Positions 593 through 63,948 of a stretch of 64,000 nucleotides of DNA are shown in pieces. The notes beneath the pieces were generated by a model that was not told the origin of the DNA, did no database searches, and saw nothing but the letters and a program-made list of their open reading frames with translations. The DNA comes from Amoebidium appalachense. Its lineage: Eukaryota > Protista > Ichthyosporea. Numbering within the stretch: position 1 is the stretch's first letter; each line of letters starts with the position of its first letter. Made by a program: the position numbers and the translations under genes. The stretch is from the NCBI GenBank assembly GCA_963693365.1, contig CAVNZM010000004.1:2192389-2256388 (forward strand), written 5' to 3'.

Positions 593-635
<43 letters not shown>

Positions 636-742
636 AGAGAGAATGCAGGAAAGGAGATATGTGTTTGGTGATCGGAGAAAGTGGGTGGGTAGAGGAGCCT
701 CTCTGTCGACAGCCAGCCAATGACATGGGGATCTGCACATAC

Positions 743-5578
<4,836 letters not shown>

Positions 5579-6302
5579 GGCAGCTGCACCAGCAGAGCCC
5601 GCCAGCAGCGCCTACGCATACTCGAACAAAACTTTCGGAAGTCAAAAGTGATCGATCGGATCGATCGATCCGGCACGGCGCGAGCGCTATATTTGTAGCG
5701 GGCGAACTTTCGGATTGGGCCTGCAACACAAAGAGCTTTAGCATAGCTACACATAACATATACCAGAGAAGGGTCATATTCATATCACTCTTTTTATGTG
5801 ATCAATATAGCAACAGACATAAAACAACGGAATATTCAATACTAGCCATATTGTGTACATAGCTCCTGTATGATCATGATTAACACATAGGATCTGATTC
5901 GAACGGACCACAGGTCATAGCGGTGCAGGCGCAGCTGCAGCTGCCGCGGCCGCCAGCGCTAGCTGTTCCACATAAGGACTTTGGCAGGTAAACACCAATT
6001 GAAGCTGCTTATTAGTCCAGGTTCATCTGCGGCTTAGAACTTTATTTTTGGAGCTTTTTTTTCCTTTTGATGCCTTTGTGCCCGCGTCCCAGGCTCCCGG
6101 CGTGTACATGAGCGAGCCCCAGGGCTGCGGGGCAGCCTGGGCTCACAGATTGGAGCTGTTTGATTGGTTACAACGGACTCTGGTAATCTAAGGATCTCTC
6201 TATGTCGTCATTTGTTGCCTTATAATTAGATATAAATCAGCTCTGTGAAACACCGGCTAAATCTTTAGGATTATTATTGGCTATTCACGCACCTTATGCG
6301 GG

Positions 6303-6518: not shown

Positions 6519-8468
6519 ATGGGGCTCTTCTCAAGAGCTGCTTGGCGAACCTTCGCCTTTGCTTGTTGTCTAGTCCTTCTTTTTACGAGCATTTCGCCAT
6601 CATCAGCAGACGAGGGCGACATTTACTCGTGTGAGAACGCACAGTAAGTTTTCATCCAAACCAATACACTAACTTACCATTTGATGTTTGTGAAACACGT
6701 GGCAAGTGGCAAGCACCCAAGATCACGACCGATATATTTCCTACAGAGTGAACACGCATTCGCACACAGAATGGCATTCCACAAAAGAGCACGTTGATGG
6801 GTTGTTGTGACATTTGTAGCTCATTTGGATTAATCAGCCTCCTTTCACGGCGCCTTCACCTACATTTGTAGCTCATTTGGATTAATCAGCCTCCTTTCAC
6901 GGCGCCTTCACCTAAAGTCTCATTTGATGCATATGGCCTTCCGAAAGCAGGCTAGAGCTCCCTTCAAGTATAACTGAGTTTGTAATCAATTGAAACAGCT
7001 CAAAACATGTGATATGAGTTTGTGCAGCATGCATTCAAACCGTTTACTAACATGAATTGTCTGAACGTTTTCCAGATATGATTTCGTTTTTGTTATCGAT
7101 TCTTCTGGCTCCATCGGTCAAGGCTGGGGCTGCGGCAATAACGTCTGCTGGAATCAGAGTAAGTGCATGAGATACACTCTGGTGTTCTGGTGCACGTGTT
7201 CGTGCCTTTGTGGACCGCCACCCGCCTCAGGTTTTTCTTGATGTTTTCGATCGCGGCTCGCAAAGGCGTTTGTGGCATACTGTACAAACGCAAGCATTAC
7301 AAAGTATATGTATAAAGCCCTCAAGAATTGGGACAACTGTTTTTTGTTTCAGCAACGGGAGTGTCATGCTCATTGATGTATACGCCCAAACATTGTCAAG
7401 CTGAAGCGCGCTCGTTCACTAATGGCGTGGTGGTATGGTGGCACAGTGCTCGAGTTCATCAAGCGGTTCCTAAACCATCCACGAGTGACCATCAGCCCAT
7501 CAAAATCAAGAGCGGCTATGATTCGTTTTGGCACGAGCAACTACGGCTATTACGAGGGCGTCACGGTGGACGTTAATCTCAATGACCCGAGGGCCTCAGA
7601 CCTCAATGCCCTTACCGCCGCTGTGGGGAGGCTCCCATACGCTGCCGGATACACGCCAACTTCGCGCGCCATTGACGAGGCACGCAATGTTTTCCGCAAC
7701 AACAACCAGCACCCTGGAGCCACTAAAATCATGGTGGTTCTGACCGATGGTTACCACACTAGCAGCTGGGATCCCTGCCCGACATCATCCTATGCTAGAG
7801 CTGAAGGCATCAACATTATCGCTGTTGGTATCAACGGCTACAGATACAGTGAGCTAAAGTGCATGTCTGGTGCCGACGACAGAATTATTGCCGTAAGCGA
7901 CTTCAACGTGCTGGCGAACGTTCTGGACAACCTCTTGTCCAAGATCTGCACGGTGAGTATTTCTCGTCATGCTCATAATTATAATTATGAGTAATCAGTT
8001 TTTCACATGTTTCAATGTACTGTACTGCTCATAATACTGAAATGTCATGTGGTACGTACATAGTTGCTAGCCGAAACGTTGTTAGATCTAGAGCCTAGCA
8101 CCGGCATTGTCCCGAATTGAAGTTGCAAATGTCATGTAGTTACTATAGGCTATGGCTCAGCGTATGTTGGCTAGAGTGCAGCCTCAACGATGCACAGGGA
8201 TGGCTAAACGTACCTAATACTAACGCATGTCCGCAGGTGGTTCCACGTAACGGTGCATGGAGCGCATGGACCACCAGCAGCTGCAGTGCCACGTGCGGGG
8301 ATGGTATCCAAAACTGGATCCGTTGGTGCGATAACCCAACACCCAATAATGCTGGTATGTTACATTTACCAAAAAATTCATGTGTCTAATAGAAAGCCAC
8401 TAAGTCTTGCACCGTGTGGTTCTGAATTAAATGGGCCACGGCTTGCACTGCTACCAATGTGTGTGTGT

Positions 8469-8503
<35 letters not shown>

Positions 8504-8590
8504 GTTGCAAAAATTATCAACGCACCGGGTATTCCCTGTTCCCTGCTTTTCGTGCACTGCAGATGCCTCAATTGCGGAGATATTTTGGCT

Positions 8591-8634
<44 letters not shown>

Positions 8635-8868
8635 TGCACTATGGCAATAACATGTACGCCTGACTCGGATTTGAAACATCAGGATTTTTGGCGAATGTAG
8701 CAATGTTTGGGGAGGGGGGGGGGGGGGGGGGGGGAAGGGGGAAGGGGGGGGAGGGGGGGGGGGGGGGTGGGGGGGTTGTCCTGTGGGGGTTAAATTTAAA
8801 TAGAAAGACGATAGCCCGGTACCTTTTTTTTCTTCGCTTCCTCTTTCTTTCTCGCCCTCTCTTTTTTT

Positions 8869-8914
<46 letters not shown>

Positions 8915-9848
8915 AGCCTCGGGTCTTTAGGCACCTTTTGAAGGCAGGTGTTGACTGTGCTTCTGTGTGGCATGTCTCGTTCAGGTGTTGACTGTCTGTG
9001 TGGCATGGCTCGTTAATTAAAAACGTTGCTATGCAGGACAAAAGTGCGGTGTCACTGGCCAGGACGATGTGACAGAGGAAATGCACAACGGCAAGATGAC
9101 CCAGAAGCAAACGAAACTCCATACCTGCAATGTGGACCCATGCCCCATCAACTGGTGAGTGGCTAAATTACTGGTTTCTGTTATGATGTGTTACTGTTGC
9201 AAAAAAAAGGGAGGGGGAGAAGGGGGGGGGGGGGGGGGGGGGAGTGTGGGAGGAGTGGTACAAGACGGGGTTGGGTGGTGGTGGTGGTGGTGGGGGGGGG
9301 GGGGGGGGGGGGGGGGTTGATTGATTGTGGGGCGGGGATCGGGGCAAGGGGACAAAAATGTTGAAGTACCGTAGGCAATGTCACTGTGAAGGTTCCACTT
9401 CTACCTATTTACTTCTGGTATCAAACTGCGCACAATGCAATATGATGGTACTTACTCCCTATATACCCGCAGTGAGGTTGGCCCATGGAGTGAGTGGACC
9501 GCCTGCACACCCGGGTGTGATGGGAAGAGCCCCACAGTGGCAGGTACCCGAACAAAGACTCGCAGTGTTTCCGTTCAGCCACAGTTTGGTGGTCAGGCCT
9601 GCCCAACACTCACCCAGACGGAGGGATGCTCAAGCACGTAAGTGGATAGCCGAACCTTTTGTTAGTTTATCAAAGCCAATCATATACTGAGTCTTGAATC
9701 TGTGTATCCCCGAGCTGCACTTCCCTCTGCCCCCTCCCCCGCTCCCTCCCTTCCCTGTAACACCCCCTCATCCCCCACCCACCCACTGGTACTCGCGCTT
9801 CCAAAGTGCACCACCCCCGCCTCCCTCGGCCCCCCCCCCCCCTCCCTC

Positions 9849-9879
<31 letters not shown>

Positions 9880-9894
9880 ATCATAAACACACGT

Positions 9895-9930
<36 letters not shown>

Positions 9931-12541
9931 TTGTTAGGTCATGTGTCGGCCATGCTGTTGACCAACTTTGCGGTCCAGAATCATGATACCCAGCCAATTT
10001 ACCAATTTGAAATACCACCTCTGACATCAGTACGGTGCCACACAGGTGTGCGGTTGACTGCATCATGGGGGAGTGGACCGATTGGTCATGTGACGCCTCA
10101 AGCCACTGCGATGGTGCAAATTCGCAAGCCAACGGCACACAGACAAGAACCCGCCAGGCCGAGCGCCAGCCAGCAAACAACGGAACGGTGCGTAGAGATG
10201 CACACCCAGCATTCCAAACTGGGGTGTAGTGCACGTGCATGACAAACGATAAATTTTTGGACTTTCATACAGTATACTCTAATATTACATTATGATAGTG
10301 GGTTTGCAAACTTTGCACACGTCTTCTCCCACGCCCTATAGTATAATATACTATGTTGTGCCTTTTTTTTTTTTTTTTTTTTTTTTTCCGGGTTCCCGTT
10401 GCACGTGCACCTCACAGAAGCTACCGTCTTCCATTTGGTTTACTAAGGCAATATCGTACTCCTACAGCCAATAACAAGCAGAACTTATTTGCCCCGCTAA
10501 TACCTTTTCACCTTTTTTCTGCGCAGGAGTGCCCCACCCCCACGAGGGAAAACGACACCTGCAGCTACGACCACTGTGAGCAGAGCTGCAGATTCCTCGC
10601 ATGGTCAGAGTGGGCCCCGGCCCTAGTTTGCGAGCCGTCAGATGTGGGAACCGTGCCCTCAGTTACTGGCACGCAGACACGCACCCGTGTTCTGGACAAC
10701 CCGCTGAACAAGGAGTGCGGCAACATGGGCAACTTCCTGAACGAGACGGAGGTGCACACTGTTCTGTGTGATGTGGACTGCCGGCAGGAGTGGAGGAATT
10801 GGGCCGACTGCACGAGCAAATGTGCTGATATCGGTAGGTGGCCCAGTTTCATGGTGCTGGTGCGCACATGTGCTGCCATGCATGAGACTGTAAAGGGATT
10901 GTGCCCGTTGCAAAGGCAGGTTGGTGTCTATTTTTGTAGTCTCTACATAGTTCTGGGCACAAAACTTGTGCTCACCATCTTCCCTACCATCGTCATAACC
11001 CGTAAACATAAACATTACATCGATAAGTTTCTTACCTTTTCTCGCTGCAGATAAGGGCACGCAGACACGCATCAGGGTGGACCTTCAGCAGCCATACAAA
11101 AACGGCAAGAAATGCAACGAAACACGCACAGAGACCAGAGTGTGTGAGCCACTGATCTCTGAGGAGTGCCCAGTCAACTGCCAGGTGAGAAATGGGGCTG
11201 GGGTTCATTAGCTTTTTAGAATAGATAACTTTTCTTGCTCACTCCTTTCTAGTCTTTATTACTAGCATTGCTTCTTTCCCCCTTCCCCCCCTCCTCCCCT
11301 CACCCTCCCCCTTCCTCCCCTCCAGAACCCTCGTTGGCAACATATTCCTCCCCCCACCCCCCCCCCCTCCTCCTCCTCCTCCTCCTCCTCGTCCCCGGGG
11401 CAAAACAATCCCTTTCCCCCACCACTATCTCTTCCTAATCGTGATCCCCTCTTGTTTACCACCCATTCTCACAAGCCATCCGTCAGGTGTCCGATTGGGC
11501 CGAGTGGTCGCCATGCAACTACACGTGCATCGCTGGTGTGCCCGATGCCACCGGCACCAAGAATCGCTCAAGAACCATCACCATGCCCCCAGCCTACAAC
11601 GGAACGGACTGCCCTCCCCTAGAAGACCTGGTATGCATTTGTGTATTCCTTTACTTTTGCCCTCTCCTCCCCCAGCCCCCCTCCCCCCTCCCCTCCCTTC
11701 CTCCTCCTCCCTCCCCCCTCTCTCCCCCCCCTCCCCCCCCTCCCCCCCCTCCCCCTCCCCTCCCCCCCCCCCCCCCCCCCCCAACCACCGCACAACCACC
11801 CCCACCACTTACACCAATGCGCCCTACCGTGCATACCCAACCTGCTAGCCCCGTACCGGCACCCCCTTCATCATCCCGCTTTCTTTTCCTCTCATTCTCT
11901 TCATCTTTCCCACATGGCCACTAACAATGCAAAAATACCATGCACCCCTGCGGCTACTTTTGACAAACGTTCAGTTTGTGGAACTTACTCTCCTTGCACC
12001 ATAACCCTGTTGTCCTTTTGGTTGCTTGTAGACTAACTCCCCCCCCCCCCCCCCCCCCCCCCAGCAATCGTGCACGGTGACGTCATGCCCTGTGGACTGT
12101 GTGCAGACCGAGTGGTCGTCGTGGAGCATCTGCTTCTGCGGTGTTGAGGTCGAGCACAACCGCACACGAAACACCGTCACAAACGCAACAAATGGCGGCA
12201 TCCCCTGCGGTGAAACCTGGGAGACACAGAACTGCTCCCTGGGCTCGTGCATTGCTCCCCCCATTGTTGTTCCCCCCAACAACACCCCCAAGATTGTGGG
12301 TGGGGCTGTGGGTGCGGCCGCCGCTGCCGGCCTTGCTGGGTTGGGAGTCCTGTTATGGGCCCGCCGCAACCACCTGGCCAACATTGCCACCATGCGTGCA
12401 TTCGAGCAAGATGCCCTGTTTAACACGGCCGCTGCAGGAAACAACCCCCTGTTCTCTTCGCCCACACAGGAGGTCCTTAACCCTGCTTACAGCGCCGAGA
12501 TCGATGCCCCACCAAGCACGGGCAGCATGCACCAGCTTTAA
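6519..12541 (+). CDS. Type I membrane adhesin, paralog A: signal peptide + vWA (MIDAS) + 7 TSP1 repeats + TM + integrin-beta-like NPxF/NPxY tail
   Basis: 11 phase-consistent GT-AG exons: 6519-6643, 7076-7158, 7447-7952, 8237-8354, 9037-9154, 9473-9637, 10046-10187, 10527-10833, 11051-11184, 11487-11630, 12065-12541. Signal peptide MGLFSRAAWRTFAFACCLVLLFTSISPSSA. vWA motifs FVIDSSGS, GYTPT, VVLTDG. Repeated WxxW..C...RxR..C units. TM IVGGAVGAAAAAGLAGLGVLLW. Tail ...AFEQDALFNTAAAGNNPLFSSPTQEVLNPAY. Confidence 0.9.
6810..6913. repeat. Perfect 52-bp tandem duplication in intron 1 of paralog A
   Basis: ACATTTGTAGCTCATTTGGATTAATCAGCCTCCTTTCACGGCGCCTTCACCT at 6810-6861 and 6862-6913. Confidence 0.95.
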
Positions 12542-12944
12542 GATCGGCTAAAGTTTTTCTAAAGGCACTGTAGCATCTGCAAATTTAGGTTGCTTTCTGC
12601 ATGAAATGTTGTTGTCAACCCTTGTAACTACTGGGCCCCGTGGGGCTCCACACTAGAATTTTGATTGGTTGAACTTGTGATGACGAATGCATTCTTACCC
12701 GATTTATGGGTATGTTTTAGTATTGACGGTTACAATCATAGCCTACACTTACCATGCATATTTTTTATCTTCGGTTACAAACCAATAAAATCTGCCCTTT
12801 CATCTAAAACTACATGTTGTGGTATATCTCTCTCTCTCTCTCTTTCTCTCGCTCCCCCCCCCCCCCCCTCCCCCGAGGCTGTCTCTCTCGCACTCTCGCT
12901 TTCTCGCTTCCTCCCCCTCTCCCCCCTTTCCCCTCCCCTCCCCC

Positions 12945-13002
<58 letters not shown>

Positions 13003-13185
13003 AAAAAAAGAAAAAAGAAAAAAGACGTATATTCGCATTTTCTATCAAACAATTCAGCATATGGCCACCTGCAAACTCCTTCTCGATTAGTTTTTTCTCG
13101 GGTTTAATCAAGCCTAATGACCTGCACATTTCATTGATTTGACCCTTTGGTTGTGCATGTTAATCCCACCATGCAATCCCCAATT

Positions 13186-13257
<72 letters not shown>

Positions 13258-13269
13258 AAACAAACACCC

Positions 13270-14882
13270 ACCCACCCACCCATTCAACCGACACGACTCT
13301 GTGCACATCCTCCGTTCTTATTTTGCGCCGTGATCTGCATGTGTATTTTCCATCGGTTGCTGCATCTCCGTATACCAGACCGTGTATTGCATCTGCCCCT
13401 GTCTTCCCCCCCTCCCCCCCCCCCCCCTCCCCCCCCCCCCCCCCCCCCCCCCCCTCCCCCCTCCTTCCCCCCCCCCTCCCCCCCTCCTCCCCACCCCGGG
13501 AACACCCAGGGTATCTAAGACCCCTAGCCCTGCAATAATCAGAATCCACTCGTACACATATATGTTCAAACCTCCCATCTCCCCCATCATCTCCTTCGGG
13601 CTTCCCCCACCTGCCCCCGTCTTCTTCTTTGCCCTTTTCCTAAAGAAAATAGCATCTGTACCAGAATCCGTATCCTGTCCTCTCTCTCCTGCCCTTCCTT
13701 ACTCCACCCACCCACCCATTCACCCACCCACCCGCCCACAATCCACCTACCAATCCATTTACCTGTAAAACACCTGCCGTCCCACCGTTGGGCTTCTCTT
13801 CCTCTCCCCCTCCTTCTCCCCTCTCCCCCCCCCCCCCCCCCCCCCCCCGCCCGCCCCCAACATTTCTGTTCTGGTTGACCCCCCCCCCCCACCCTCCCCC
13901 CCTGCGCTCCCAACATTTCTGTTCTGGTTGAACCCCCCCTACCCTCCCCCCTCCCCCCCCCCTCCCCCCCCCAAAACCCCGGCCCCCACTGCCCCCCGGC
14001 TGCCTGCACCTGGAGCCGACAACAACCACTCATGTATCTGAACCTGTTGCAGACTTCCCCAGCTGCTCTTTTCCACCCCCTCTCCAAGCCTCCAACCGCC
14101 ACCCTACATACACACATGCTACGTCTGCTTGACGATATCGATTATGCGCAAGGCATGTCCTAGACAACCTAACTCCCTATTTCCTACTCAAACGTCACTC
14201 CTCGCAAAACATTTCACCGTGGTACTTCATATTACCCCCCCCCCCCCCCCCCCCTCCCCCCCCCCCCCCCCCCACCCACCCACAACCGCCACCACCAACA
14301 CTACATTTTCAATCTCCGATGATCTGCTTCTATCATGGAAACCGCAGTGGCCCACACAGTCTGCATGCCATGCATGCTCGACACTGCCTTCCCCCCTCCC
14401 CCCCTCCTCCCCCCCCCCCCCCTCCCTCCCCCCCCTCTCCCCTCCTCCTCCTACTGCACAAAGTGACACGGTGAACCTACCTTTGATCCCCCCTCCCCCC
14501 CCCCCCTCCTCCTCCTCCCCTGCCGGCCCTGGCCATACACCCCCCCATTCTCGTCCTGAGGCTCTCCTCTTCCCCCCTAACCTTCCTCCCTGACTGTCCC
14601 ATATGGAATCAAAGGCCATCACATGTGATCACATTACTGGTCTGCCAATCACACAACCGCTCTTTTCTAAGTCGCATAATCAGGTTCTAGCCTACCCAAC
14701 CCCCCCCCCCCCCCCTCTGGCCCCATCTCCCCCCCCTCCCCCCCCCCCCACACACACATTCCGTTCCCCCCTCCCCCCTTGACCCCCTTACCCCACTCAT
14801 ACGGTACCCTTTTTCGACCGACCATCTCACAAAACAACTCGGTTCCACCGCCCGCATCACCGCAAGCACTATCTTCTCTCTT

Positions 14883-14913
<31 letters not shown>

Positions 14914-15332
14914 ACCCCCCCACCCCCTCCCCCCGGGGCCCCCCGGCCCCTCCCTGTCCAACACTCTGAAGCAGATCCTGCCTCTCCCCTTCCCCTCTCC
15001 CTCCCCCCTCCCCCCGCACCCCTCCCATTCCAGGCCCCTTGCCCCTTGCTGGCCTGGCCATTAAAGGATATCTTCCCCTTCCATTGAATAGTATCCCCGC
15101 CCCCCCCCCCCCCCCTTCTCCTCCCCATACACACACACAAACCGTTATACACACAGCAATATCTGGTCCAGACTAACAACTGGCAATTAAAAGCACGCAC
15201 ACGAAGTCTTACCCCCGCAAGCTTTCAATCGCTATTCTTTAGTGAACCACCACTCTGCAGCCGAGTTTACCATGACCTCTCTAACTTGTTTTAGTGCCTC
15301 CTTAGCTTGTGCAGTCTTTCCCTTCCCTCCCC

Positions 15333-15416
<84 letters not shown>

Positions 15417-16223
15417 TTCCCCCAACCACCACCAACACAGGTGGGGAGGGAAGGGGCGACGGGGAGGCCCCGCAGGCGGGGTAGGGGGGGGGGGGGGGGG
15501 GGGGAAGGAAGGGGGAGGGGGAGGGGGAGGGGAGGGGGGGGAGAGGGGGGTAAGAGGGGGGGAGGGGGGGAAAGAGGGATGACGGTCAATAAAGGGCATG
15601 GAAAGTAGCACTCGTTCCTGTTCTAGACCGAGAGCAGTACAGAGGCAGAGAGGTAGATTTGCTGTACCCACAACATCCCGTTAGATAACATGCATGACTT
15701 CTATCCAGTAGGCATGCTTGCAAGATTAAGTACACCCGTCATTTAAGTATGGTGAATGTACAGAGAAGCATTCTGTATAGGGCAAGCCAGAACCCAACTT
15801 GGCATCCCCTTGAAAATTCATTAACAACGGCATTCCATAGCCCCCCTCCTCCCCCCCCCCCCCTCCCCGTTGCACCGGGAAAACGGCACTGAGGTGGAGA
15901 GGCAGAGTGGGGCGGAGGGGGGACGAGGAACGGGAGGGGGGGGAAGGGGCGGAGGAGGAGAATTCCCCGGGGGGGGAGGGGGGGGGGGGAGGGGGGGGGG
16001 AGGGGGGGAGGGGGGGGGGAGGGGAAGGGCGGAGTATTGATTGTTGTGACTGTGAGGATCACTGGCACGTGGCAGTCGACGAGCACTTGGCCCATAATTC
16101 GACCTTACCTCAATGACCACAGCCCAGTCGCCCAGTCGTACATGGTCACACAACTTCACACAAAGCAGCTGTCGGTGTGTGTGTGTCTGTGTGTGTGTGT
16201 GTGTGTGTGTGTCTGTGTGTGTG

Positions 16224-16256
<33 letters not shown>

Positions 16257-16316
16257 TTCACACGAAGCAGCTGTCGGTGTGTGTGTGTGTGTGTCTGTCT
16301 GTGTGTGTGTCTGTGT

Positions 16317-16410
<94 letters not shown>

Positions 16411-16531
16411 CAGTGTGTGTGTGTATGCGCGCGCTTGTGTGTGTGTGCGTGTGTGCGTGTGTGTGTGTGCGTGTGTGTGTGGATGTGTGTGTATGTGTGC
16501 GTTGTGTGCGCGTTGTGTGTCACAGTGTGTT

Positions 16532-16585
<54 letters not shown>

Positions 16586-16935
16586 GTACATGTTTTTTTT
16601 TGTGTGTGTGTGTGCGTGCGTGCGTGTGTGTGTGTGCATGTGTGCGTGCGTGTGTGTATGTGCATGCGTGTGAGCGTATGTGTGTGTGTGTGCATGCCAG
16701 CATGCTTGCGTGCGTCTTGTGTGTGCGTGTTGTGCGTGTGCGTGTGTATGTTTGTACGTATGTGTGTGTGTGCATTTGCGTGTGTGTACGCGCGTGTGTG
16801 CGTGTGTGTGTGCGTGTGCGCGCGTGTGGTTGTGCATTTGCTGTCAGTGAGTGGGTTTTGACCATTACGCAGATTTGGTGCCAATTTCATGTGCCTGGCG
16901 CGAAAACGCTGCACAACATCATGCACCGGGTACCT
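13270..16935 (-). CDS. Possible small-exon gene convergent with paralog A (model not resolved)
   Basis: Islands of unique sequence bounded by AG/GT on the minus strand: 16168-16109 (LLCVKLCDHVRLGDWAVVIE then GTAAGG) and 14043-14010 (VQIHEWLLSAP). Further candidates lie near 14800-14870, 14305-14365 and 13270-13392. I could not build a full phase-consistent chain. Confidence 0.25.
16175..16830. repeat. Degenerate (GT)n/(GTGC)n microsatellite block
   Basis: Directly visible; includes a short duplication of AAGCAGCTGTCGGTGTG near 16163 and 16265. Confidence 0.9.
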
Positions 16936-17189
16936 GCAATGAATGCGTCAGGCGCAGGTATTTTGTAGTTCCGATGCCTGAATTTCACACGCACCCGGCC
17001 CCGGATATCTTACGGCGTACGCGCAGCTATAGCTAGAGCATGCATGCATACGTGGGGGTTGGGCGTGGGCAGTTCAACGCGTAACGCGGCCTGCTGCCTC
17101 CTACTGCCTACGTGACTCCGGCACATTTATGTGCAGACCTTGCAGTATACCAGACAAAAAGTTTATCTATCAAATATATATATATATAT

Positions 17190-18026
17190 TTTCTATCTAA
17201 CAACTGTTGTAAACCTGGGCCTGTAACGCTCTCGATATATGGTCTGGTCCCAATAGCTGCTAGAGTATCCTATCTCGCGCTGAAATTCAATAAGCACATA
17301 AGCCGCTTAAAGAAGTATTTGCCCTCCCACCCTCTCTTCTCTATCCGACCTGTCCCCTCCTCACCTCTCCCCTCTTTCCTCCCCTCTCTCTCCCCTTCTC
17401 CCCTGGGCACAAATACAAATAAACCCCGCAATAGTGTGTGTGTGACTTTGGACTGCCACTTACTTATTAAACATGTACACAATCACAAGATAATCACGCA
17501 ATATAACAAATGGAAAAAGATACCACACGACACTAGACCCGATGAAAGCATACACCTTGAAAAACTAAGCCTTATGTCTCGTTTTATATATACTGACCGC
17601 CTCAACCATATTGCCAAATATGGCACTCGCAAGTGTATAACACCTAAATACATATTACCTTCCTGTAGAACTGGTCTTTCTCTAGCTGATGGTATTATTG
17701 ATCAATTACCACGCTTTTACTGTACACGTGCTATACAGTGGAGATCTAATAAGTATAAGGTGGCATCATTTGCATGCCCAAACAACACACACACACACCA
17801 GTTTAACCGGTCATGTATCGCCAAATGTAGTTTGATAGACCACATAATACCGCAACACACACACGTCACATTCACAACAGACACCCAGAAAGATAGCCTA
17901 CCTGTAAATTACAACATCCTTGATTTTATACTAAACACGCGTAACTACGACCTGTTTATTAGATGTATTGATAGGCTTGAGAAACACATCACTACAAAAT
18001 TATAGCGCACGCGCACACACACACAC

Positions 18027-18083
<57 letters not shown>

Positions 18084-18115
18084 CCAGCTGATACCGAGTG
18101 TCCCGAGGGGAGCCC

Positions 18116-18160
<45 letters not shown>
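17190..18160 (+). mobile_element. Probable 5'-truncated non-LTR retrotransposon (post-RT C-terminal region) followed by (CA)n and poly(A)
   Basis: Intronless AT-rich ORF (17112-18005) with LVPIAARVSYLALKF..RL, DGIIDQLP..RAIQWR..ACP..FNRSCIAKC..NILDFILN. From memory this resembles the Cys-containing C-terminus of LINE ORF2 proteins in fungi and protists. No RT catalytic motif is present. (CA)n follows the stop codon, then a long poly(A) at 18120-18160. Confidence 0.5.
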
Positions 18161-18161
<1 letters not shown>

Positions 18162-18354
18162 GGGGAACCCCAACTAATTGATTTCTCCTTGTAGTCTTTA
18201 TGGTGTCTCGTAGAGAAAGTAAACCCTGATATATAGTCACCACCCGACATCTATGTACGTGATCATGATATACCGCTGAGGGGATATTCCGAGCAAAACC
18301 CCCCCCCCATACCTGAGACTGGTTCTCTTTGCCTCGAGTAAACAGCGTAAACCC

Positions 18355-18391
<37 letters not shown>

Positions 18392-18691
18392 TGTCTTGAA
18401 TCTAGTACTGCTGGAAGCTGTAGCTGAGAAGTTGAAGGGCCAGCTCTAGTCATTATCATCAACCCTTATCTGGTGGACACGTACGTAACACGTGGAAAAA
18501 ACATCAGAATTTCGTGGTGCGCTTTAGGCCAGTTGGAATCGATTTTGAGTGAGCCACATTATGCTAGATCTGAAGCATTCCGGTTGGTGCATATATATAA
18601 CCGTTAGCAACGACGGATGTGCCTAATCCGGTCGCAACACAAGCACGGATACAATTCACCAATCACTTGTGAGCTCATCTTGAGGGGAAGG

Positions 18692-18723
18692 TATATAAGG
18701 AAGCGTGGCCGGTAACGTTCATT
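18692..18723 (+). promoter_or_regulatory. Putative TATA box and initiator of adhesin paralog B
   Basis: TATATAA at 18692-18698 and TCATT at 18719, with spacing similar to paralog A. Confidence 0.5.
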
Positions 18724-18838
18724 TGTGAATCCAAATCAACCGGCAGGATTCACGTACAACATAACGAAGAATTTGTTCCCCTTTCTAAACCTAGCGTACA
18801 GCCTACTATAGCGAGCTCTCTCTTTTAGCGAACTGAAA

Positions 18839-19517
18839 ATGTTTTCCATTTTGTCTGCCCCCGCCAGGGGTGGCGGGTGCACGTGGATTAGGCGCGTTGT
18901 TGCCATTTCCCTACTGGTCTTGTTTTGCAGCTCTGTTCAACCAACGGCCGCCCGAGCCGACACAGATATTGTGTCGTGTGAAAAATGCACAGTAAGTTTT
19001 CACCATGGTTTTTGTTTGGATTCTCCACCGAAGTGCTTTCTTCGACTGCTACGGGACGGGAGGGGTGAGAAAGAGTTGAAAACAGTGGGCCATGCACATG
19101 GCAGTGTTTTCGTATGAGCGGTAGTGGATCATGAACAAACCATACAACAGGATGGTAAAGAACGCAATGAAAAGTAGTGGCTATATATACCTGGTTCTGC
19201 AATACAATAGGATGCTGAAAAAAAATATAATCAAAACGATCAAGAAGGATAAACCATGGCCAAGTTTAGGAGCGGAAAACCCACACTAGGAAAAACGATT
19301 TCACTGAACAGAAATATAGTAGATAAGAGAAAAGCAGCACATATGGGTAGGTGAGCTTATGGGCAGGTGGGCCTATTCCATTCACAGTACGGGAGCTAAA
19401 ACCAGTGCTGTTTGCAGGTACGAGTTTGTTTTTGCCATCGACTCGTCTGGGTCCATCAATAAAGGCGACTACTGCTCTGACCTTCGCTGCTGGGGCCAAA
19501 GTAGGTGTCATAATTGC

Positions 19518-19549
<32 letters not shown>

Positions 19550-19769
19550 CGCTGCTTGCACCTTGTACACACCATTTTGGCACATGCACGTTTATGTGCC
19601 GCCAAATGTGCACCAATGTGAAACCATTCGTTTTCTTAGCTTTATTTTATTTTTATTAGAACATGTAAAAATGGATAAAACTTTGAGTTTGATGAAGGTT
19701 GAGATAACCGCAAATATACACGTGACTGTTTTCCCCCTTTGTTCCCTGAAACATAAACACACACGTACA

Positions 19770-19819
<50 letters not shown>

Positions 19820-20046
19820 CCCACACACACATGCGCGCGCACACAGGCACACGGGCGCGCACACGCGCAGGCAGGCACGCAACCACGCATACTTGCACGC
19901 ACGTACACACGCTCACAATCACGCACGCACGCACGCACACAGGCACGCATGCACACACACACGCGTGCTGGCACACACACACACACACACACACGGCCAA
20001 AAAAAAACACTAGCACATTCATACACATCCAGAAAAAGCCAACACA

Positions 20047-20083
<37 letters not shown>

Positions 20084-22113
20084 ACACACCACCCTACCGC
20101 ACAAGCACATCTACATGCACACGTGCACAGGCACAGACACGCTCTACACCTGCACACACACTTCACTCATCCACACACTCACGACACACACAAAACCAAA
20201 AACCATTATCATTACTAACATCACGTATAAGTATATGATAGTACTTATCCCCAGTGGCCTTGCTAATCCTATTTTGCGTCCATCCACAGTGAAGGACTTC
20301 ATTGTTCGTTTCCTCGCCCATCCACGAATCACCATCAGCCCCCAGAAATCAAGAGTCTCTCTCGTCCGCTTTGGCACAAAGACAAATTCGGACTACAATG
20401 GGGTTGTTGTGGATGTTTCACTAGACGACACACGTGCATCTGATCTCAGTTCCATCACAAAAATTGCACAGACACTCCCGTATGCGCCTGGTCATACCCC
20501 TACTAGTGCTGGTGTTGATGAGGCACGAAACCAAATGACGAGCTTTTCTCGTCCAAATGTCACGAAAATTATGGTGGTGCTTACGGATGGCTTCCATTCT
20601 GCCGGCTTTGATCCGGAGGAATCGTCCGCCGTAGCGCGCACGGAGGAGGGGATAAATATAATCGCGGTTGGAATCGGCGGATACAAAAAGGAGGAATTAC
20701 TTAATATGGCGGGATCGCTCGATCGCATAATCGAAGTGAGCGATTTCAGCAAACTTGAAAGCACTTTAGACCAACTTCTAAGCACCATTTGCACCGTTGT
20801 TCCGCGTAACGGTCAGTGGGGGGATTGGTCGTATGAGCCATGCACAACCACATGTGGGGTAGCTACAAAGAAGGCCTTTCGCTACTGCAACAACCCCTAC
20901 CCCAATAGCTATGGGCAGCCATGTACGGGTACAGGGGTGGTCAATGTGAAGTACAACGGCAAGGACACACTCATGCAGACACAGACACGAGACTGTGAGG
21001 TCATTCCATGCCCCATCAACTGGTATACATACTCCCCTCCCCCCCCCCCCCCCCCCCCCCTTCCCCTCCGGCCCCTCCCCCCACCACACACACATACACA
21101 CACGCCCCAAACCCCCCTCCCGCTTCTTCTGTAGGTCGACCCCACTTCCTTCAGGGCACACAGGGCACATTATCTCCTTGAAATAAATAAAATAAATGTG
21201 GCTGGAATTCCGTCTTTCTTGGTTTGGAGTTATGTGACCTTAATCTGCAACCAAAATATGAACACCCTATAGCAGCACCAATCCATTTAACTCAATAGAA
21301 ATCCTAAATAACCCCCCATAACTCCACACATCCCTCTCATTTCACCATCACATGCATTTTTCTAAATTTCATCCCCCCCTGCAGTGCTGTCAGTGAGTGG
21401 GGTGCCTGGAGTGGCTGCCAGCCCGGCTGCAACAACCAGGACCCACTAGTGCCCGGCCAGCAGACACGCACCCGGCAGGTCACCACTGAGCCCATGCATG
21501 GCGGCCAGATATGCCCCACACTCACCCAGACATACCCATGCACTTCACTGTATGCAACCCTCCCCCCTCCCCCCTCCCCCCTTCCCTCTCCCCCTCCCCC
21601 TGGCGGCCCCCCACCCTTCCACCCTTTTCTAGCTTTCGATCTCTTGTTACAAGCTCGCTCTCTCTCCCTCCCTACCTCCCCCCTTCTGTGAGAGAGGAAA
21701 AACTCAGAAAACGGCATGCGAGGGTGTTTTCTGAGAGGTGTGGAGCTATTATGTATGCTTGAGGGTTACTAGTGAGTGATATTGAGATTTGGTTAAAACG
21801 GGGAAAGATTAGTGGCGTTATAGAGTGTTCATGTCTCCTGTCTCGACCCCCTTCTCCAACCCCCTTCCTTCTCTCTTTTCTTTCCACCTTCCCCCTCCCC
21901 TCCGGCTCCCTAAATCTTCCAGTCCGTTCCGTTATGTATATAGCCATTACCACACAAGTCCCCCAATGCGCCCCCCTAAGGGCAAAAAAAAATAAAAAAA
22001 ATAAAAAAAAGACCCTTACTCCAGATATCTCTCTAAGTCAGTAGCTGCCATCGAAAAACGACCATCCAACACACGTGTGTTCCCTAACTCCCTCCCCCCC
22101 CCCCCCCCCCCCC

Positions 22114-22145
<32 letters not shown>

Positions 22146-23407
22146 CCCCCCCCCCCCCCCCCCCCTCCCCTCCCCAACCACCACCACCACCACCATCCAC
22201 CCCCCATCCTCAACTTATCCTATCTCTCTTCCATGACCGTCCCCATCTCCAACTCCCCTAACCCCCCCCCCCCCCTCCCCCCCCCCCCCTTCTCCCTTCC
22301 CCTTCAGGTGCAAGGTGGACTGTGAGCTCAGCCAGTGGGCCGACTGGGTGTGTGATGCTGCCAGCAACTGCAACGGCATCAATGCAGCCGCCAATGGCAC
22401 AAAGACAAGAACTCGCCAGGTTGCCCGCCAGCCGGCAAATGGTGGCCAGGTACACTATCTCCCCTCCCCCTCCCCCCTTCCCGCCACCCCTCCCTTCATC
22501 CTTCTCTTCCCCATCCCCCAGTCCCCCCCCCCCCCCCCCCCGTCCCCCCCCCTGCCCCAACGGTGCTTCCTCTTTTCCCCTCCAACCCTCCCCCCACGTC
22601 CCATCTTCGGCCCCACTTCCTCTCCGGTCTCCCTTTTGCCTCCTGCTTTCGTGCCCATTTCTCTCCCCCCTTCTTATGACGATACCCGCACATGAAAGCC
22701 CCCAGTGATCATACATTCGTTTATGCCCAAGAGCAGAGGCCATTTATGCCCCCTCTTCCCTGCCTCTTCCTCGATGTCTCCTTTTCTGTTCTACAAACTG
22801 ATGCTAAATAGGAACCCGTAAATCCATCTTTTGAGATATGCACATGCAAGATTGTCTTTAAGTTACCTATATAATGACCTACCACCACAAGTTTTTAACA
22901 TAACTACTTCCCCACCACGCACAGACATGTTCCGGCCCACTCAGTGAAACTCTACCCTGCACCTTCACCTCGTGTACCATCGACTGCAAATACAGCCCTT
23001 GGGCCGACTGGTCAACACCCATCCCCACCTGCCCCCCTGCCTCCCAGGGCACACTTCCTAATCTTCAGGTCGATCGCACCCGCACCCGCACCGTTGAAAA
23101 ACCCCCCGGGAGCAGTGCAAATTGCAGTGCGATGGAGGGGGTGCAAAACCTGCAGCAGATGCAAACAGTGACTGTGCCGTGTAACGTGGACTGCCGCTAC
23201 TCCAAGTGGACTGATTGGTCGCTATGCTCCAGTCGTTGCACAAACACCTCGGGTACGTAACATCCCCAATCCCCCCCTCACCCCCCCCCCCCCCCCTCGC
23301 TCCCCCCCACCCACGCACACACACACACATACACACACACTCTCTCTCGCTTTCTCAGCCTTTTCGACTATATGGCTCCCCTCCCCCCACCCTCCCCGTG
23401 CATGACT

Positions 23408-23442
<35 letters not shown>

Positions 23443-23675
23443 TTCCCCCCGAGGATGGGCTCTGCTTATTTTGCATACTCTTTATGTGTGGTTTGCACTC
23501 TGCATGGTGTTGTCCGTTATCTATGTGTACTTCGTACTTTATGACGCATTCAAATCTCCCCCGCCCCTCCCATACACACACACACGCCCACCCACCCACC
23601 CCCCTCTTCGACTCCCCCCCATCTCCCCCCTCCAATACACACACACACGCCCACCCACCCACCCCCCTCTTCCAT

Positions 23676-23709
<34 letters not shown>

Positions 23710-23907
23710 ACCACCACCACCACCACCACCACCCCACCCCATCCAACCTTTGCCCTCCTTTACCAAAGTCTCATCTCCCTCTCAACATTTTTGCACATCA
23801 TCTAAAGGCCGCCTTCCAATCCCATTTATCTTGCCCATTTCTTTCTTCTCCCAATTATCTCCCTCCTAAGCAGAGACCATGTATTCCTAACACTCCGTAA
23901 TCTCCTC

Positions 23908-23948
<41 letters not shown>

Positions 23949-24004
23949 CCCCGCCATAATACTCTCCCCCCTCCCTTCCACTGCCCGTCTCCCTCCCTTC
24001 TCCG

Positions 24005-24035
<31 letters not shown>

Positions 24036-25716
24036 CCCTCCCCCTAGTTCCAGGCACGATGTGGAGCAGCCGTTCGATCATCCAGCAGGCCCACAACCAG
24101 GGCACTGCCTGCACCCAGGACACCCACAGGGAGACAAAGTGCGAGGACACCTCAGAGTGCCCTCGTGACTGCCTCGTACGTGCCCCCCCCCCCCCCCCCC
24201 CCTCGGCCTTTCAGCTCCCCCTCTCCCCCTCCCCCCCCCCCCCCCCCTCTTCCCCGACATCATGGCAACCCCGACTTTTTGCTCGTCACCTTTTTCCCAC
24301 TCTCCCTTATCAGAGTGTCCTCGTTGTAACCTCTGCAACCCGCTACCTCCCTCCCACTCTCCCTCTCTCCCTCTTCCCCCCCCCCCCCCCCCACCTCCCC
24401 CCACCCCCCCCCACCCCCCCCCCCCCCCCCCTTCCCCACCCTCTCCCATCCTTGTCTGGCCTGGCCACAAACCCACCACCTCACCCCAACCACCTTCCCA
24501 GTTATCCATTTTGGGCTTTATAATGTAAGAAGCCGTCACTCTTTTTATTTGCATACAGTGACTATTAATCCGTAAAGCTAACATATGATTATTGCCCAAT
24601 CAGGTGGCCGACTGGTCCACATGGACCACGTGCACCTACACGTGTACCCCCGGCAACCCCACGGCCCAAGGCACCAGCATGCGCACCCGCACCATCTCCC
24701 ATGCCCCCATGTTTGGTGGCAGGGACTGTCCCGTGACTGTCGAGAGGGTATGTGCTTACCATCCCCCCCCCCCCCTCCCCCCCTCCCGGCCCACACACCC
24801 AACCACTCACCCCCACCTGCACACCTCCCCATTCCCCCTGCCCCTCTGTGCCGGGGTTGACCTGGGCCTCTCCTCAGCATGCGCTCTGCTTGTCATTCAT
24901 ACTCTCTATGTGTACTTTGCATTCCTTAAAGCACACATTCCCCCCTCCCCCCTCCCCCCGCTCCCTCCCCCCCCCCCCCTCCCCCCCTCCCCCCGCTCCC
25001 CTCCCCCCCCCCCCCCCCCCCCCTCCCCCCCCCCCGCGCGGGGTTCTCCCTCCCTTACTTTCCAAAGAATAAAAAATATGTACATACTACACCCTGTGTT
25101 GCATACACTTACACAAAAGCACCAGGAATTTAAATTCCCAAACACACTTTTTGTACACACACGAAGCCATGTGCTCTAGACTCGCATCCAACTAACCCAT
25201 CCCCTCCAACCTCCCTCCCCCCCCCCCCCCCCCCCCCCCCGGCCCCTCCCCCCTCCCCTCCAGCAATCGTGCACGGTGACGTCATGCCCTGTGGACTGTG
25301 TGCAGACCGAGTGGTCGTCGTGGAGCATCTGCTTCTGCGGTGTTGAGGTCGAGCACAACCGCACACGAAACACCGTCACAAACGCTACAAACGGCGGCAC
25401 CCCCTGCGGCAATATTTGGGAAACAGAGAAATGTGCCCCAGATTCGTGCATATCTGCCAAGGCCGAGACAGCAACATCAACAAAGTCTAACACGGCAAGT
25501 ATTATTGGTGCAGCCGTGGGTGTAACGGCCGCAGCCGGATTGGTTGGCCTTGTGGCGGTGCTTTGGGTCAGACACAACCATATGGCTAGCCTGGCCACCA
25601 CCCAGTCAATCACGCACGATGCTCTGTTTAGCTCGTCTGCGTCAGCAAACAATCCACTGTTTGCAAGCCCTACAACGGAAACGGTAAACCCTGCGTATAT
25701 TGATTCGGTGGTGTAG
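18839..25716 (+). CDS. Type I membrane adhesin, paralog B: signal peptide + vWA (MIDAS) + 7 TSP1 repeats + TM + NPxF/NPxY tail; apparent +1 frameshift in exon 1
   Basis: 9 exons: 18839-18991, 19418-19500, 20290-21022, 21385-21549, 22308-22449, 22925-23252, 24048-24175, 24604-24747, 25264-25716. vWA motifs FAIDSSGS, GHTPT, VVLTDG. TM IIGAAVGVTAAAGLVGLVAVLW. Tail NNPLFASPTTETVNPAY. Removing one A from the A5 run at 18981-18985 restores SCENAQ (as in paralog A) and the exon 1/2 phase. Confidence 0.85.
23451..23554 (+). repeat. About 105-bp dispersed intronic repeat, copy 1
   Basis: GAGGATGGGCTCTGCTTA...GTGTACTTCGTACTTTATGACGCATTCAAA. Close copy at 57563-57667; partial or diverged copies at 24878-24930, 37781-37815, 40660-40715, 51903-51957. 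Confidence 0.85.
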
Positions 25717-30360: not shown

Positions 30361-32017
30361 TTAGACACTAGTTTGGCTACTCTGACTACTCTGAGATCCT
30401 GATTGGCTGCCTGCAGACTTGCGGCCACGATTACTTTGCTTTCGATCGTGCCATTGCAGCTGCGTCTCTCCAGCAGGTGGCAACGCCAGGCCCAGCACAG
30501 CAGATGCACGAGAAGGGGGTGGGAACTGCCCACCAGCCGAGGGCTGGCCCACATGGCCCAAGTAAGGATGGGGACCGTGCTGCGGCAGTAGCCCAGGCAT
30601 GGGGAAGGCAGGGCCGGGCTGAGGCGGCATGATGCCCCACGGTGGGGGCCAGCCATGTGGGTGGTGCGGGCCTGGATGGGGTGCAGGGGGCATGTGCGGC
30701 ACATGGCCCTGCTGCATGTCAAGCGCGGGTGCTGGTGGCATGGCATCCTGATTGGCTGCAACCCAACGTGGGCAGCTCTTGGCCCGATTGGAGCCGGGGC
30801 AGCCCTTGCCCTGGCGGCCACACGTCTTGCAGGTCTTGGGGGCTCTCTGGGGTGGCTGCATAGGAGGGGGCACCGGCAAATCCATCTGCAGGGGCCCCTC
30901 AGGGCCAATGTTGCGATGCTTTTTGCCCACTAGCATGGGCAAGGGCCGCTCACGCTGCGCCCCTGCATCGACACCGTCTGGAACAGGGAGGGGTGGCAAG
31001 GGGGCAGGCCGTATGGTTGCTGGCACAGCGTCTGCCCTCTCCTCGCGCATACGCTTGCGGTGATCTGCCAGGCCCTCGTGTGTGGAGCGCTGTGCATGTG
31101 CCGTCTGCCAGGTCTTCCACTTGTCGAAATGCTTCTTGATGTAGGCCGCATCCTTCATGTAGATTCCCCCAGCCACAGAGGCAGCCTTGTTGAAGTCTTG
31201 GGCCAAAGCCTCGAACAGCTGGCCGTTGGGCTTTGCATGTGCCTTGTAGGTGCCCAGGAGCAGCGTGCTGAATAGCTTGCGCTCCTGAGGGGTAAGCACC
31301 GGAAGGAAGGGGATGGCCACATGTTGCTTCTGCGCCAGGAACTTGTAGTCGCCCCTCAGTGCAGGGTCCGGCTGTGGTGCACCACGCGCCACCTGGTTGC
31401 CCCCCCCCATGGCAGCACCGTCACCCTCCTCGACCTCACAGTCCTCTGGCCCGCCCATCACGCCATTGGCTGCAGGCTCGATGTTATCAGACGGAGGTGG
31501 GGGTGCGGGCACCGCAACTGGCTCCTGCGCCGGGGCATTGGCCACACAGGAGAGCGGGGCAAAGTTGAAGTACTCCTCCGGTAGCTTGTAGCAGCCTACG
31601 GGTACCCACTGGGGGTCGAGGTGATGGCCGTACAGCATCAGCGCCAGTGCCTCCATGTCGTCAACAATCCAGGGGCTGTAGTGGGGGGGCCCCGATGCCT
31701 GGCCCAGGCGGTTGCGGTAGTGTGCACGCAGGTTGTGGCGGTGGCGCCTATTGGACATGGTGGCGTCCAGCAGGCGCAGCGACATGCGTGTGGCCCCAAA
31801 GTGGGTGGCCAGGGGGTTGTGCACTGCCCCCTCCACCTCGTTGGTGCCCCGGATGCAGCGGTAGCGCATGAGCCCATCTGCGTCGGCAGTGGTCTCGTAG
31901 TAGAGGGGCAGGCCGGGGGGGTCCGACAGACAGCCATTTTGGGCGTGTTCGAGCAGCGACTGTGGGGGCACAAGCAAACATCAGAGAGATGGGTGGGTGG
32001 TGGTGGTGGTAGTGTGT

Positions 32018-32064
<47 letters not shown>

Positions 32065-32145
32065 GGGGGGGGATGGGGTTGCTAAGGAAAAAAACGAGCA
32101 GGGAAAGGCAAAAAACAACTGGCTAGGCAGCAAGGGCCGTGCGGG

Positions 32146-32211
<66 letters not shown>

Positions 32212-32787
32212 ATGTTTGGGGGGGGGAGGGGGGGGGGGGGGGGGGGGGGAGGCTAGGGTGTGCGTGTGTGTGCAGATGAACCAAGGATGACAAATAAGCG
32301 AAGAATCTTTTCTGTGGTGGTGGAGTTGTTGGGCGCCTGCAGGGGGAGGGGGGGGGGGGGGGGATGTTGCCTCGAGTCTTTCAAAGCCATCCTTCTTGAA
32401 CAGAGGCTTGCCATCCGGTCCGGGCGGCACATCCTTGTAGGTGTTTTTGAACTCCACCAGCCGCGAGACCAGCGTGTATGGGTCGGGAATAACCCGCCGG
32501 ATGCGCTCCATGAAGTAGCTCAGGTCGCCGCCCTTGAGCTCGGTTTCAATGTCGATGCCCTTCTGCTCCAGCACCCCCTGTGAGGCAGGATGCCAATATT
32601 AATTTACTACGCACACTGCAATTTGGGTTTGGTAGACTTTGATACCTGCCGTTATTGTAGGACCCCTCCCCTCCACCCCCCCCATCTTCTCCCCCAACAC
32701 AAGTAAAAAATGCATGTGGCTATTTCCCCCCACAACCCTACATTATTTCTCTCTAGGCATATGAATAACCCCCACTCTCCTCCCCCC

Positions 32788-32826
<39 letters not shown>

Positions 32827-33999: not shown

Positions 34000-34030
<31 letters not shown>

Positions 34031-34960: not shown

Positions 34961-35045
34961 GGGTGCCGCACTGTGTGAGAGGGCATCTCCGAGCAGCCAT
35001 GCATGTTCTAGCTTCCCTTACCACATGGCCCTTCACGAGACTTCA

Positions 35046-35350: not shown

Positions 35351-35520
35351 CAGCCCTCCATATGGCACCTACTGTCCCCCCCCCCCCCCCCCCCCACCCC
35401 ACCCCGGGCCTCTTGCCCTCTCTACCTTCAACCCCGACGGTGGTGTCTCTCCCCCCCCCCCCCCCCCCCTGCATCCCTTGCAATCACTGGCCCCTACTCC
35501 CATTCTGCTTGGCAGAAGCT

Positions 35521-35568
<48 letters not shown>

Positions 35569-35569
35569 A

Positions 35570-36987: not shown

Positions 36988-41264
<4,277 letters not shown>

Positions 41265-45767: not shown

Positions 45768-63948
<18,181 letters not shown>

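Follow-up and report, generated by a model that had tools for sequence, protein, structure and literature searches.

A stretch of 64,000 nucleotides from the ichthyosporean Amoebidium appalachense, a unicellular relative of the animals (assembly GCA_963693365.1, contig CAVNZM010000004.1, positions 2,192,389 to 2,256,388; in the following, the window) contains two paralogous genes which lie head-to-tail on the + strand and are spliced at GT..AG sites into open frames. [quoted passage not shown] Judged by analogy with SibA of Dictyostelium, the products are probably single-chain, metal-dependent adhesion receptors that are coupled to actin by talin. The combination, in a holozoan, of a vWA-TSR ectodomain resembling that of TRAP with an integrin-type tail appears to be new.

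Gene Structure and Transcripts

Gene 1 (6519-12541, + strand) has 11 exons and a product of 772 residues; gene 2 (18839-25716, + strand) has nine exons and a product of 775 residues. From exon 2 on, 376 of 712 aligned residues are identical (53%). Eight introns match in position and phase between the genes. Gene 1 has two more, one after the vWA and one inside TSR1, and exons 3-5 of gene 1 correspond to exon 3 of gene 2.

Both genes are real and are expressed as spliced transcripts. With the last exon of gene 1 we found P0002, a EukProt protein of 775 residues labelled Amoebidium parasiticum, also an ichthyosporean, whose name format we take to be that of a de novo transcript assembly. P0002 matches gene 2 over its full length, with 770 of the 773 positions aligned to the exon translation in agreement, and has vWA, TSRs, TM and tail on a single chain. 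In gene 1, the contigs of sequencing run X2, compared over the stretch from 6400 to the end of exon 10, give seven exact GT..AG joints where the splice model places them. Two further loose contig ends enter exons 4 and 11, the latter running from exon 10 into the first bases of exon 11, so that nine of the ten introns are supported; intron 7 is without contig support and no single contig spans the gene. The three runs all stem from one sample and are presumed to be RNA. Runs X1 and X3 yielded no true cover of gene 1, which says nothing against the gene. The splicing that the first-pass annotation had drawn for both paralogs is borne out by the exon model, P0002 and the X2 contigs, and for gene 2 the single chain of P0002 joins the vWA exons to the TM exon.

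The sole difference between P0002 and the window lies at the junction of exons 1 and 2 of gene 2, where P0002 reads CENAQYE (CENAQYD in gene 1). The window has five A at 18981-18985, one base more than P0002; four would restore the CENAQYE frame across both exons. As the assembly is full of long homopolymers, the extra A is most likely an assembly slip and not the mark of a broken gene, and it would lead annotation to miss or truncate gene 2. A pseudogene is ruled out by the intact transcript protein. An in-frame acceptor also exists at 19425, but the CENAQYE junction of P0002 rules out that gene 2 is mainly spliced there.

To judge from hydropathy alone, the leader would be a signal peptide and the products would be secreted with type I topology. 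In intron 1 of gene 1 (6809-6913), a direct duplication of about 52 bases was spotted by eye.

Membrane Segment and Cytoplasmic Tail

In both genes the last exon (gene 1 exon 11, 12065-12541; gene 2 exon 9, 25264-25716) encodes the end of TSR6, TSR7, the TM (12293-12358 and 25501-25566), NPLF (12443-12454 and 25651-25662), NPAY (12479-12490 and 25687-25698) and the stop. The motif pair thus spans 12443-12490 in gene 1, which has a tail of 60 residues, and 25651-25698 in gene 2, with a tail of 49 residues. Simple exon shuffling at the TM boundary was rejected, because TSR7, TM and tail sit in one exon in both genes. The TM comprises 22 residues, contains six Gly in gene 1 and four in gene 2 with one GxxxG each, and ends in Trp.

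When TM and tail were compared alone with Pfam, PF08725 (Integrin_b_cyt) was the only family above its cut-off, at 24.8 and 24.2 bits with a curated cut-off of 23.4. A profile of TM and tail built from the two paralogs matched three of 177,635 PDB sequences at E<=10, all of them integrin beta: the beta2 tail (E 0.011) and two beta1 chains (E 0.19 and 0.27), with the same 8-residue spacing of the motifs. The beta1 alignment, 68 positions long and with a single inserted residue, extends from the membrane segment as far as the second motif. In both paralogs the Trp that ends the TM stands 29 residues ahead of NPLF, the same distance as in the PDB beta1 chain, and the linker between the two motifs is Ser/Thr-rich. 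These results uphold the integrin beta-type tail that the first-pass annotation had claimed, and the beta1 and beta2 motifs which it had quoted agree with the PDB chains.

Of 200,000 shuffles of the gene 1 tail, 23 gave the pattern NPx[YF]-x8-Nxx[YF], and of 200,000 shuffles of the gene 2 tail, 7 did so, the paralogs not being independent of each other. From NPLF to NPAY, 12 of 16 residues are identical (75% vs 53% overall), which makes this block the best kept part of the proteins outside a stretch in TSR7 that has probably been converted. Eight of these 12 residues are encoded by different codons in the two genes. The codons of the block have thus diverged at silent sites, so that it is the protein motif which selection maintains.

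As to the stretch in TSR7, the opening 50 codons of the two last exons (12062-12211 and 25261-25410) encode 48 identical residues, and 3 of 46 degenerate codons differ there, compared with 28-67% elsewhere. A recent gene conversion tract over TSR7, ending before the TM and the tail, is likely.

The LLxxxHDRKE/HDRRE clasp, which interacts with the alpha subunit in integrins, is absent; the aligned region reads ARRNHLAN in one paralog and VRHNHMAS in the other. Both tails are free of Trp and are not acidic (5 D/E vs 3 K/R in 60 residues; 3 vs 1 in 49).

Head and Stalk

The MIDAS is complete, as the first-pass annotation had stated, with D50/S52/S54, T139 and D170 in gene 1 and D59/S61/S63, T148 and D178 in gene 2. 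In gene 1, exon 1 (6519-6643) encodes the leader and Cys38 (6630-6632), the predicted partner of Cys237. Exon 2 (7076-7158) holds the start of the vWA with DSSGS (7098-7112), and exon 3 (7447-7952; Pfam VWA, E 1.9e-20) holds its remainder with T139 (7653-7655), D170 (7746-7748) and Cys237 (7947-7949). In gene 2, exon 1 (18839-18991) encodes the leader and Cys47, exon 2 (19418-19500) contains DSSGS (19440-19454), and exon 3 (20290-21022) covers both the remainder of the vWA (Pfam VWA, E 1.9e-20) and TSR1 (TSP_1, E 4.7e-4). Directly after DSSGS, both paralogs have a 7-residue insertion with a C-x4-C loop. Its sequence differs between them, and it could tune the choice of ligand.

Exons 4-10 of gene 1 (8237-11630; singly 8237-8354, 9037-9154, 9473-9637, 10046-10187, 10527-10833, 11051-11184 and 11487-11630) encode TSR1, which is of the thrombospondin type, and TSR2-6, which are of the spondin type. 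TSR2-6 of gene 2 are encoded by exons 4-8 (21385-21549, 22308-22449, 22925-23252, 24048-24175 and 24604-24747). Each protein has seven WxxW-type TSRs, six with six Cys and TSR4 with four, and every Cys of the ectodomain falls within the vWA or the seven TSRs. On the whole protein, Pfam gives VWA (E 2.8e-23), six stretches of TSP1_spondin and five of TSP_1; a head family of integrin beta does not appear at E<=1, nor does a PSI or EGF domain. The first-pass annotation was therefore right that the integrin leg of PSI, hybrid and EGF domains is missing, as it was about the Trp of TRAP tails.

Residues 46-275 of P0002 align in a single stretch with vWA and TSR1 of Toxoplasma MIC2 (E 2.7e-9, 37.5 bits). 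Both flanking Cys, the one before strand 1 and the one at the end of helix 7, match in this alignment, and between the helix-7 Cys and the TSR Trp it has no gap. Plasmodium TRAP is also among the PDB matches of the head, and the top ESM Atlas cluster is TRAP (0.91), with 159 of 256 features shared where 170 are typical for the same family. In the protein search with vWA and TSR1, all eight non-self matches are vWA proteins of 23-32% identity, and those that carry a name are mostly collagen VI/XII-like. Structure models reached a pLDDT (predicted local distance difference test) of 34 from the single sequence and of 39.7 from nine rows, the latter usable over the vWA only and poor beyond residue 251; the Foldseek list for this modelled head contains no beta-I domain. 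An Asp-Asp after the MIDAS start is the pattern of the ADMIDAS (adjacent to MIDAS) of integrin beta, and neither paralog has Asp-Asp after DSSGS. In sequence and model comparisons the head is thus of the alpha-I/collagen/TRAP class and not of the beta-I class, and the vWA taken alone is closer to animal matrix domains.

Proposed Mechanism

SibA offers the best functional model for the Amoebidium receptors, if the analogy of design extends to function. In SibA a vWA is combined with a Gly-rich TM and a pair of NPxY motifs, and talin binding needs the proximal one (PMC9197732; this and the other citations refer to passages of the papers named). The link between SibA and talin bears force (PMC12686525). 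Like SibA-E, the Amoebidium proteins are single-chain and, by prediction, type I, with an extracellular vWA, a Gly-rich TM with GxxxG and two NPxY-type motifs (NPxY in SibA-E). Unlike the Sib proteins, they have a stalk of seven TSRs right behind the vWA, and their host belongs to a holozoan lineage that has canonical integrins too. Sib proteins have been reported in dictyostelids only (Kang et al., preprint 10.1101/2020.04.29.069435), and no Sib-named protein was among the nine vWA+TSR1 matches of our word-based search (426-1357 residues).

We propose that a surface ligand is held by one of its acidic residues, bound to Mg2+ or Mn2+ at the MIDAS, and that the TSR stalk holds the head off the membrane and carries tension. 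A disulfide Cys38-Cys237 in gene 1 and Cys47-Cys246 in gene 2 would anchor the N-terminal segment where helix 7 ends, with TSR1 coming directly behind, as in MIC2 and TRAP. In these proteins the N-terminal Cys of the I domain is linked to the helix-7 end with a TSR in tandem, and when force makes helix 7 piston toward the open state of high affinity, the disulfide-linked segment extends (PMC7351488). Given the predicted Cys tie and a TSR1 directly after helix 7, tension on the stalk would shift the Amoebidium head to such a state as well.

On the cytoplasmic side, the talin head would bind the proximal NPLF and link the receptor to actin, as with SibA and with the integrin tails of Capsaspora, whose beta tails recruit human talin via NPxF (PMC6450878). 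From these two precedents, talin coupling can reasonably be inferred. No alpha subunit would be involved. Binding of kindlin, which the first-pass annotation had named as a partner of integrin beta tails, is unlikely: kindlin is reported only in animals and was rejected as the partner of NPAY, and premetazoans, none of which was found to have kindlin, still keep the distal motif in their beta tails (PMC4325847). NPAY therefore needs another partner, possibly a recycling factor of the SNX17 type; in beta integrins, SNX17 binds the NPxY that lies farther from the membrane (PMC3328392). The amoebae that Amoebidium releases crawl (PMC11286789), and Creolimax has a nearly complete adhesome which is raised in its amoebae (PMC4739763). 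Together, this points to traction or attachment of the amoebae as the likeliest use of the receptors.

Several results weigh against this reading. On the whole protein PF08725 drops to 20.2 bits, under its cut-off of 23.4; the similarity of the tail is low-scoring altogether, with modest PDB E-values of 0.011-0.27. Among 1.84 billion representatives, the profile of TM and tail found no integrin at E<=0.001, and in the ESM Atlas the query with tail gave only generic TM-tail clusters below 0.9 and no integrin. Both paralogs are without the Trp that beta1 and beta2 have five and four residues ahead of NPxY/F, which in integrin beta is part of the talin contact. Its position holds Ala/Ser in both paralogs, and the nearest aromatic residue is the Phe at -8, from a conserved DALF. 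On the side of the head, the vWA of mussel PTMP1, which has the flanking Cys pair too, scores 48.8 bits compared with 37.5 for vWA and TSR of MIC2, and in the Foldseek ranking MIC2 (rank 30) stands behind PTMP1 and behind alpha-I, collagen VI and vWF domains. By these scores and ranks, TRAP-type allostery is an analogy. Finally, NPxY motifs also serve trafficking (PMC3328392).

A more far-reaching version, an integrin in one chain in a close relative of animals, is less likely than not, and we put it forward tentatively. A true membrane and tail module of integrin beta would then have been captured and fused to a TRAP-type, force-activated I domain on a TSR stalk, independently of apicomplexan TRAP and of dictyostelid Sib, and the pull of talin and actin would open the head without an alpha subunit. 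If this were true, amoebae would have gained a TRAP-like traction adhesin wired to the animal-type adhesion machinery.

Alternative Explanations

The alternative that survives best, although we hold it to be rather unlikely, is that the ectodomain binds a ligand and NPxF/NPxY act as a trafficking signal. Clathrin adaptors of the phosphotyrosine-binding (PTB) type would internalise the receptor and a FERM protein of the SNX17 type would recycle it, making it a surface protein of uptake or of regulated turnover, without any force from actin. The missing Trp ahead of the proximal motif would fit this view. So would the binding of SNX17 to the distal NPxY of beta integrins (PMC3328392) and the absence of kindlin outside animals, which leaves the distal motif in need of another partner (PMC4325847). 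Yet the end of the TM, the 29-residue distance, the 8-residue spacing and the Ser/Thr-rich linker jointly match the integrin beta family and no other above its cut-off, and a head of the force-sensitive type on a stalk of seven TSRs suits traction better. Moreover, trafficking and traction can coexist, as they do in integrins.

We regard it as very unlikely that the proteins are true gliding adhesins of the TRAP family, acquired from an alveolate or retained since a common ancestor and moved by a TRAP-type connector. The TM is rich in small residues, as in rhomboid substrates. The single-stretch alignment with MIC2 over vWA and TSR1, the PDB matches to MIC2 and Plasmodium TRAP and the TRAP cluster at the top of the Atlas speak for this reading, and with TRAP, MIC2 and CTRP the Amoebidium proteins share the leader, a Cys-flanked vWA with MIDAS, a TSR directly past helix 7 and a TM close to the C-terminus. 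However, the 159 shared Atlas features stay below the 170 typical of the same family, and the closest relatives of the vWA are animal and collagen-like (8/8 non-self matches, 23-32% identity). The TRAP family is defined by a signal peptide, a vWA and/or TSR ectodomain, a TM near the C-terminus and a tail that is acidic and has a subterminal Trp (PMC9019593), and the two features of the tail are decisive. Unlike those of TRAP, MIC2 and CTRP, the Amoebidium tails are not acidic, have no Trp and carry NPxF-x8-NPxY.

Still less probable is a highly divergent integrin beta that has TSRs in place of its leg but has kept its pairing with an integrin alpha. Its TM and tail would be expected to lie in register with beta1, as they do, and ichthyosporeans have both alpha and beta integrins (PMC4739763, PMC8061703). 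With integrin beta (human beta1 and beta2, Capsaspora, Sphaeroforma), the proteins have in common the TM end, the 29-residue distance, the 8-residue motif spacing and a vWA with MIDAS outside the cell. Integrin beta, however, combines a beta-I head, bearing MIDAS, ADMIDAS and SyMBS (synergistic metal-binding site), with a cysteine-rich stalk (Kang et al., 10.1101/2020.04.29.069435). The Amoebidium vWA matches Pfam VWA and structures of the alpha-I/collagen type but not the integrin beta head family, and PSI, hybrid and EGF leg as well as the HDRRE/HDRKE clasp are missing. As far as their sequences tell, the proteins lack defining features of TRAP and of integrin beta alike.

Just as improbable is a chance or neutral resemblance of the tails in ordinary vWA-TSR surface proteins, e. 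g. of a wall or holdfast, which the modest PDB E-values (0.011-0.27) and the two related copies, the only ones known, would allow, but against which stand the rarity of the pattern in shuffles (23 and 7 of 200,000), the silent-site divergence of a motif block kept at 75% vs 53% overall, better than anything outside the converted TSR7, and the scores of both tails above the curated PF08725 cut-off.

Relatives and Novelty

Queried with the final exon of gene 1, the protein search gave P0002 and one TSR-only protein (2 matches among 7998 candidates), and queried with vWA and TSR1 it gave P0002 and eight animal or metagenomic vWA proteins (9 among 1707), none with an NPxY tail. With the profile of TM and tail, P0002 was the only match among 7996 candidates and also the only one at E<=0.001 among the 1.84 billion representatives. 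The product of gene 1 itself was not recovered in the protein searches either. These searches were word-limited or made with short queries, and absence of the receptors outside Amoebidium is thus weakly shown. In metagenome contigs, 20 pattern matches led to three loci which are TSR-only or chance matches, with no relative of the receptors among them. Viral contigs gave one weak TSR match (1/1) and none for the tail (0/28), prokaryote genomes one weak match out of 11; neither set contains a sign of a viral or bacterial donor. The first-pass annotation had spoken of a receptor family. There are indeed two paralogous genes; they come so far from one genus, with no relative found elsewhere.

Two of the metagenome loci, L001 (831-2700) and L002 (208-3801), contain intronless open reading frames with an N-terminal TM and spondin-type TSRs, two of them in tandem on L002. 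Their layout is virus-like, and apart from the TSR they are unrelated to the receptors.

A non-integrin, single-chain receptor with an integrin-type NPxY talin tail is already known from Amoebozoa. Beside SibA, the heavy chain of the Entamoeba Gal/GalNAc lectin and the mannose-binding protein of Acanthamoeba have integrin-like tails and were proposed as talin-coupled receptors (PMC12686525). Unlike the Amoebidium proteins, these amoebozoan adhesins have lectin ectodomains, and their binding to talin is only proposed. Cnidarians have proteins that likewise combine vWA and TSR in one opisthokont chain; their descriptions include trypsin and ShK domains, a TM is missing from most TSR proteins of cnidarians, unlike those of Amoebidium, and an NPxY tail is not mentioned in the passages concerned (PMC5446238). 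On the type II non-canonical beta subunits of Kang et al. the domains are LamG, vWD, Ig and EGF, and the cases with TSP1 are alpha subunits. This refers to passages of their main text; the figures and supplementary tables of the survey may list Amoebidium.

In titles and the beginnings of abstracts, with subscription papers outside this scope, we found no paper with this architecture in Amoebidium or another holozoan, and no literature joining Amoebidium, integrin and talin. The passages considered of PMC5560861, PMC8061703 and PMC13366479 do not mention the architecture, and two supplementary files of PMC11244446 contain no occurrence of talin, integrin, VWA, TSP_1 or thrombospondin. The first-pass annotation did not recognise such receptors as described in opisthokonts, which agrees with the literature found as far as the architecture is concerned; the kind of receptor is known from Amoebozoa.

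A study from 2025 asks how widely talin uses non-integrin receptors and whether this arose by convergence (PMC12686525). If the proposed talin coupling is true, Holozoa have such a receptor, and this in a lineage with canonical integrins besides, which suggests that the tail of integrin beta can be moved between proteins as a module. The TRAP head and the integrin tail, parts of the two best-studied I-domain adhesion designs, would be united in one natural protein, and force-driven activation of an I domain via talin could be studied without an alpha subunit. Since the tail falls under the Pfam cut-off on the whole protein, domain-based surveys of adhesomes would miss receptors of this kind.

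Other Features of the Window

Upstream of gene 1 and divergent from it lies a multi-exon gene (633-5611, - strand), with about 1 kb between the two starts. It has a weak match to BIR at 3286-3603 (E 0.0059), below the cut-off.

A multi-exon myosin gene on the + strand (46726-63149) extends toward the end of the window; no link to the adhesin genes is shown. Myosin_head matches lie at 46726-47070, 54674-55033 and 58200-58568, IQ-like stretches near 60261-61230 and a coiled-coil-like region near 62688-63149. The gene is presumably class V-like.

The region 30364-36127 is an intron-containing gene or a transposon-like element, possibly with a Zisupton-like transposase. It contains a 3'-5' exonuclease domain (PF01612, E 4.5e-15) at 34026-35042 on the - strand and a piece of DUF6729 (E 6.1e-6) at 35567-36127 on the + strand. 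Their position on opposite strands suggests an inversion or a misjoin at poly-C tracts. Further downstream, 38097-40293 (+ strand) combines an Arg/Asp/Glu repeat region (weak PRP38_assoc match, E 0.0013) with RRM-like exons and possibly encodes a splicing factor.

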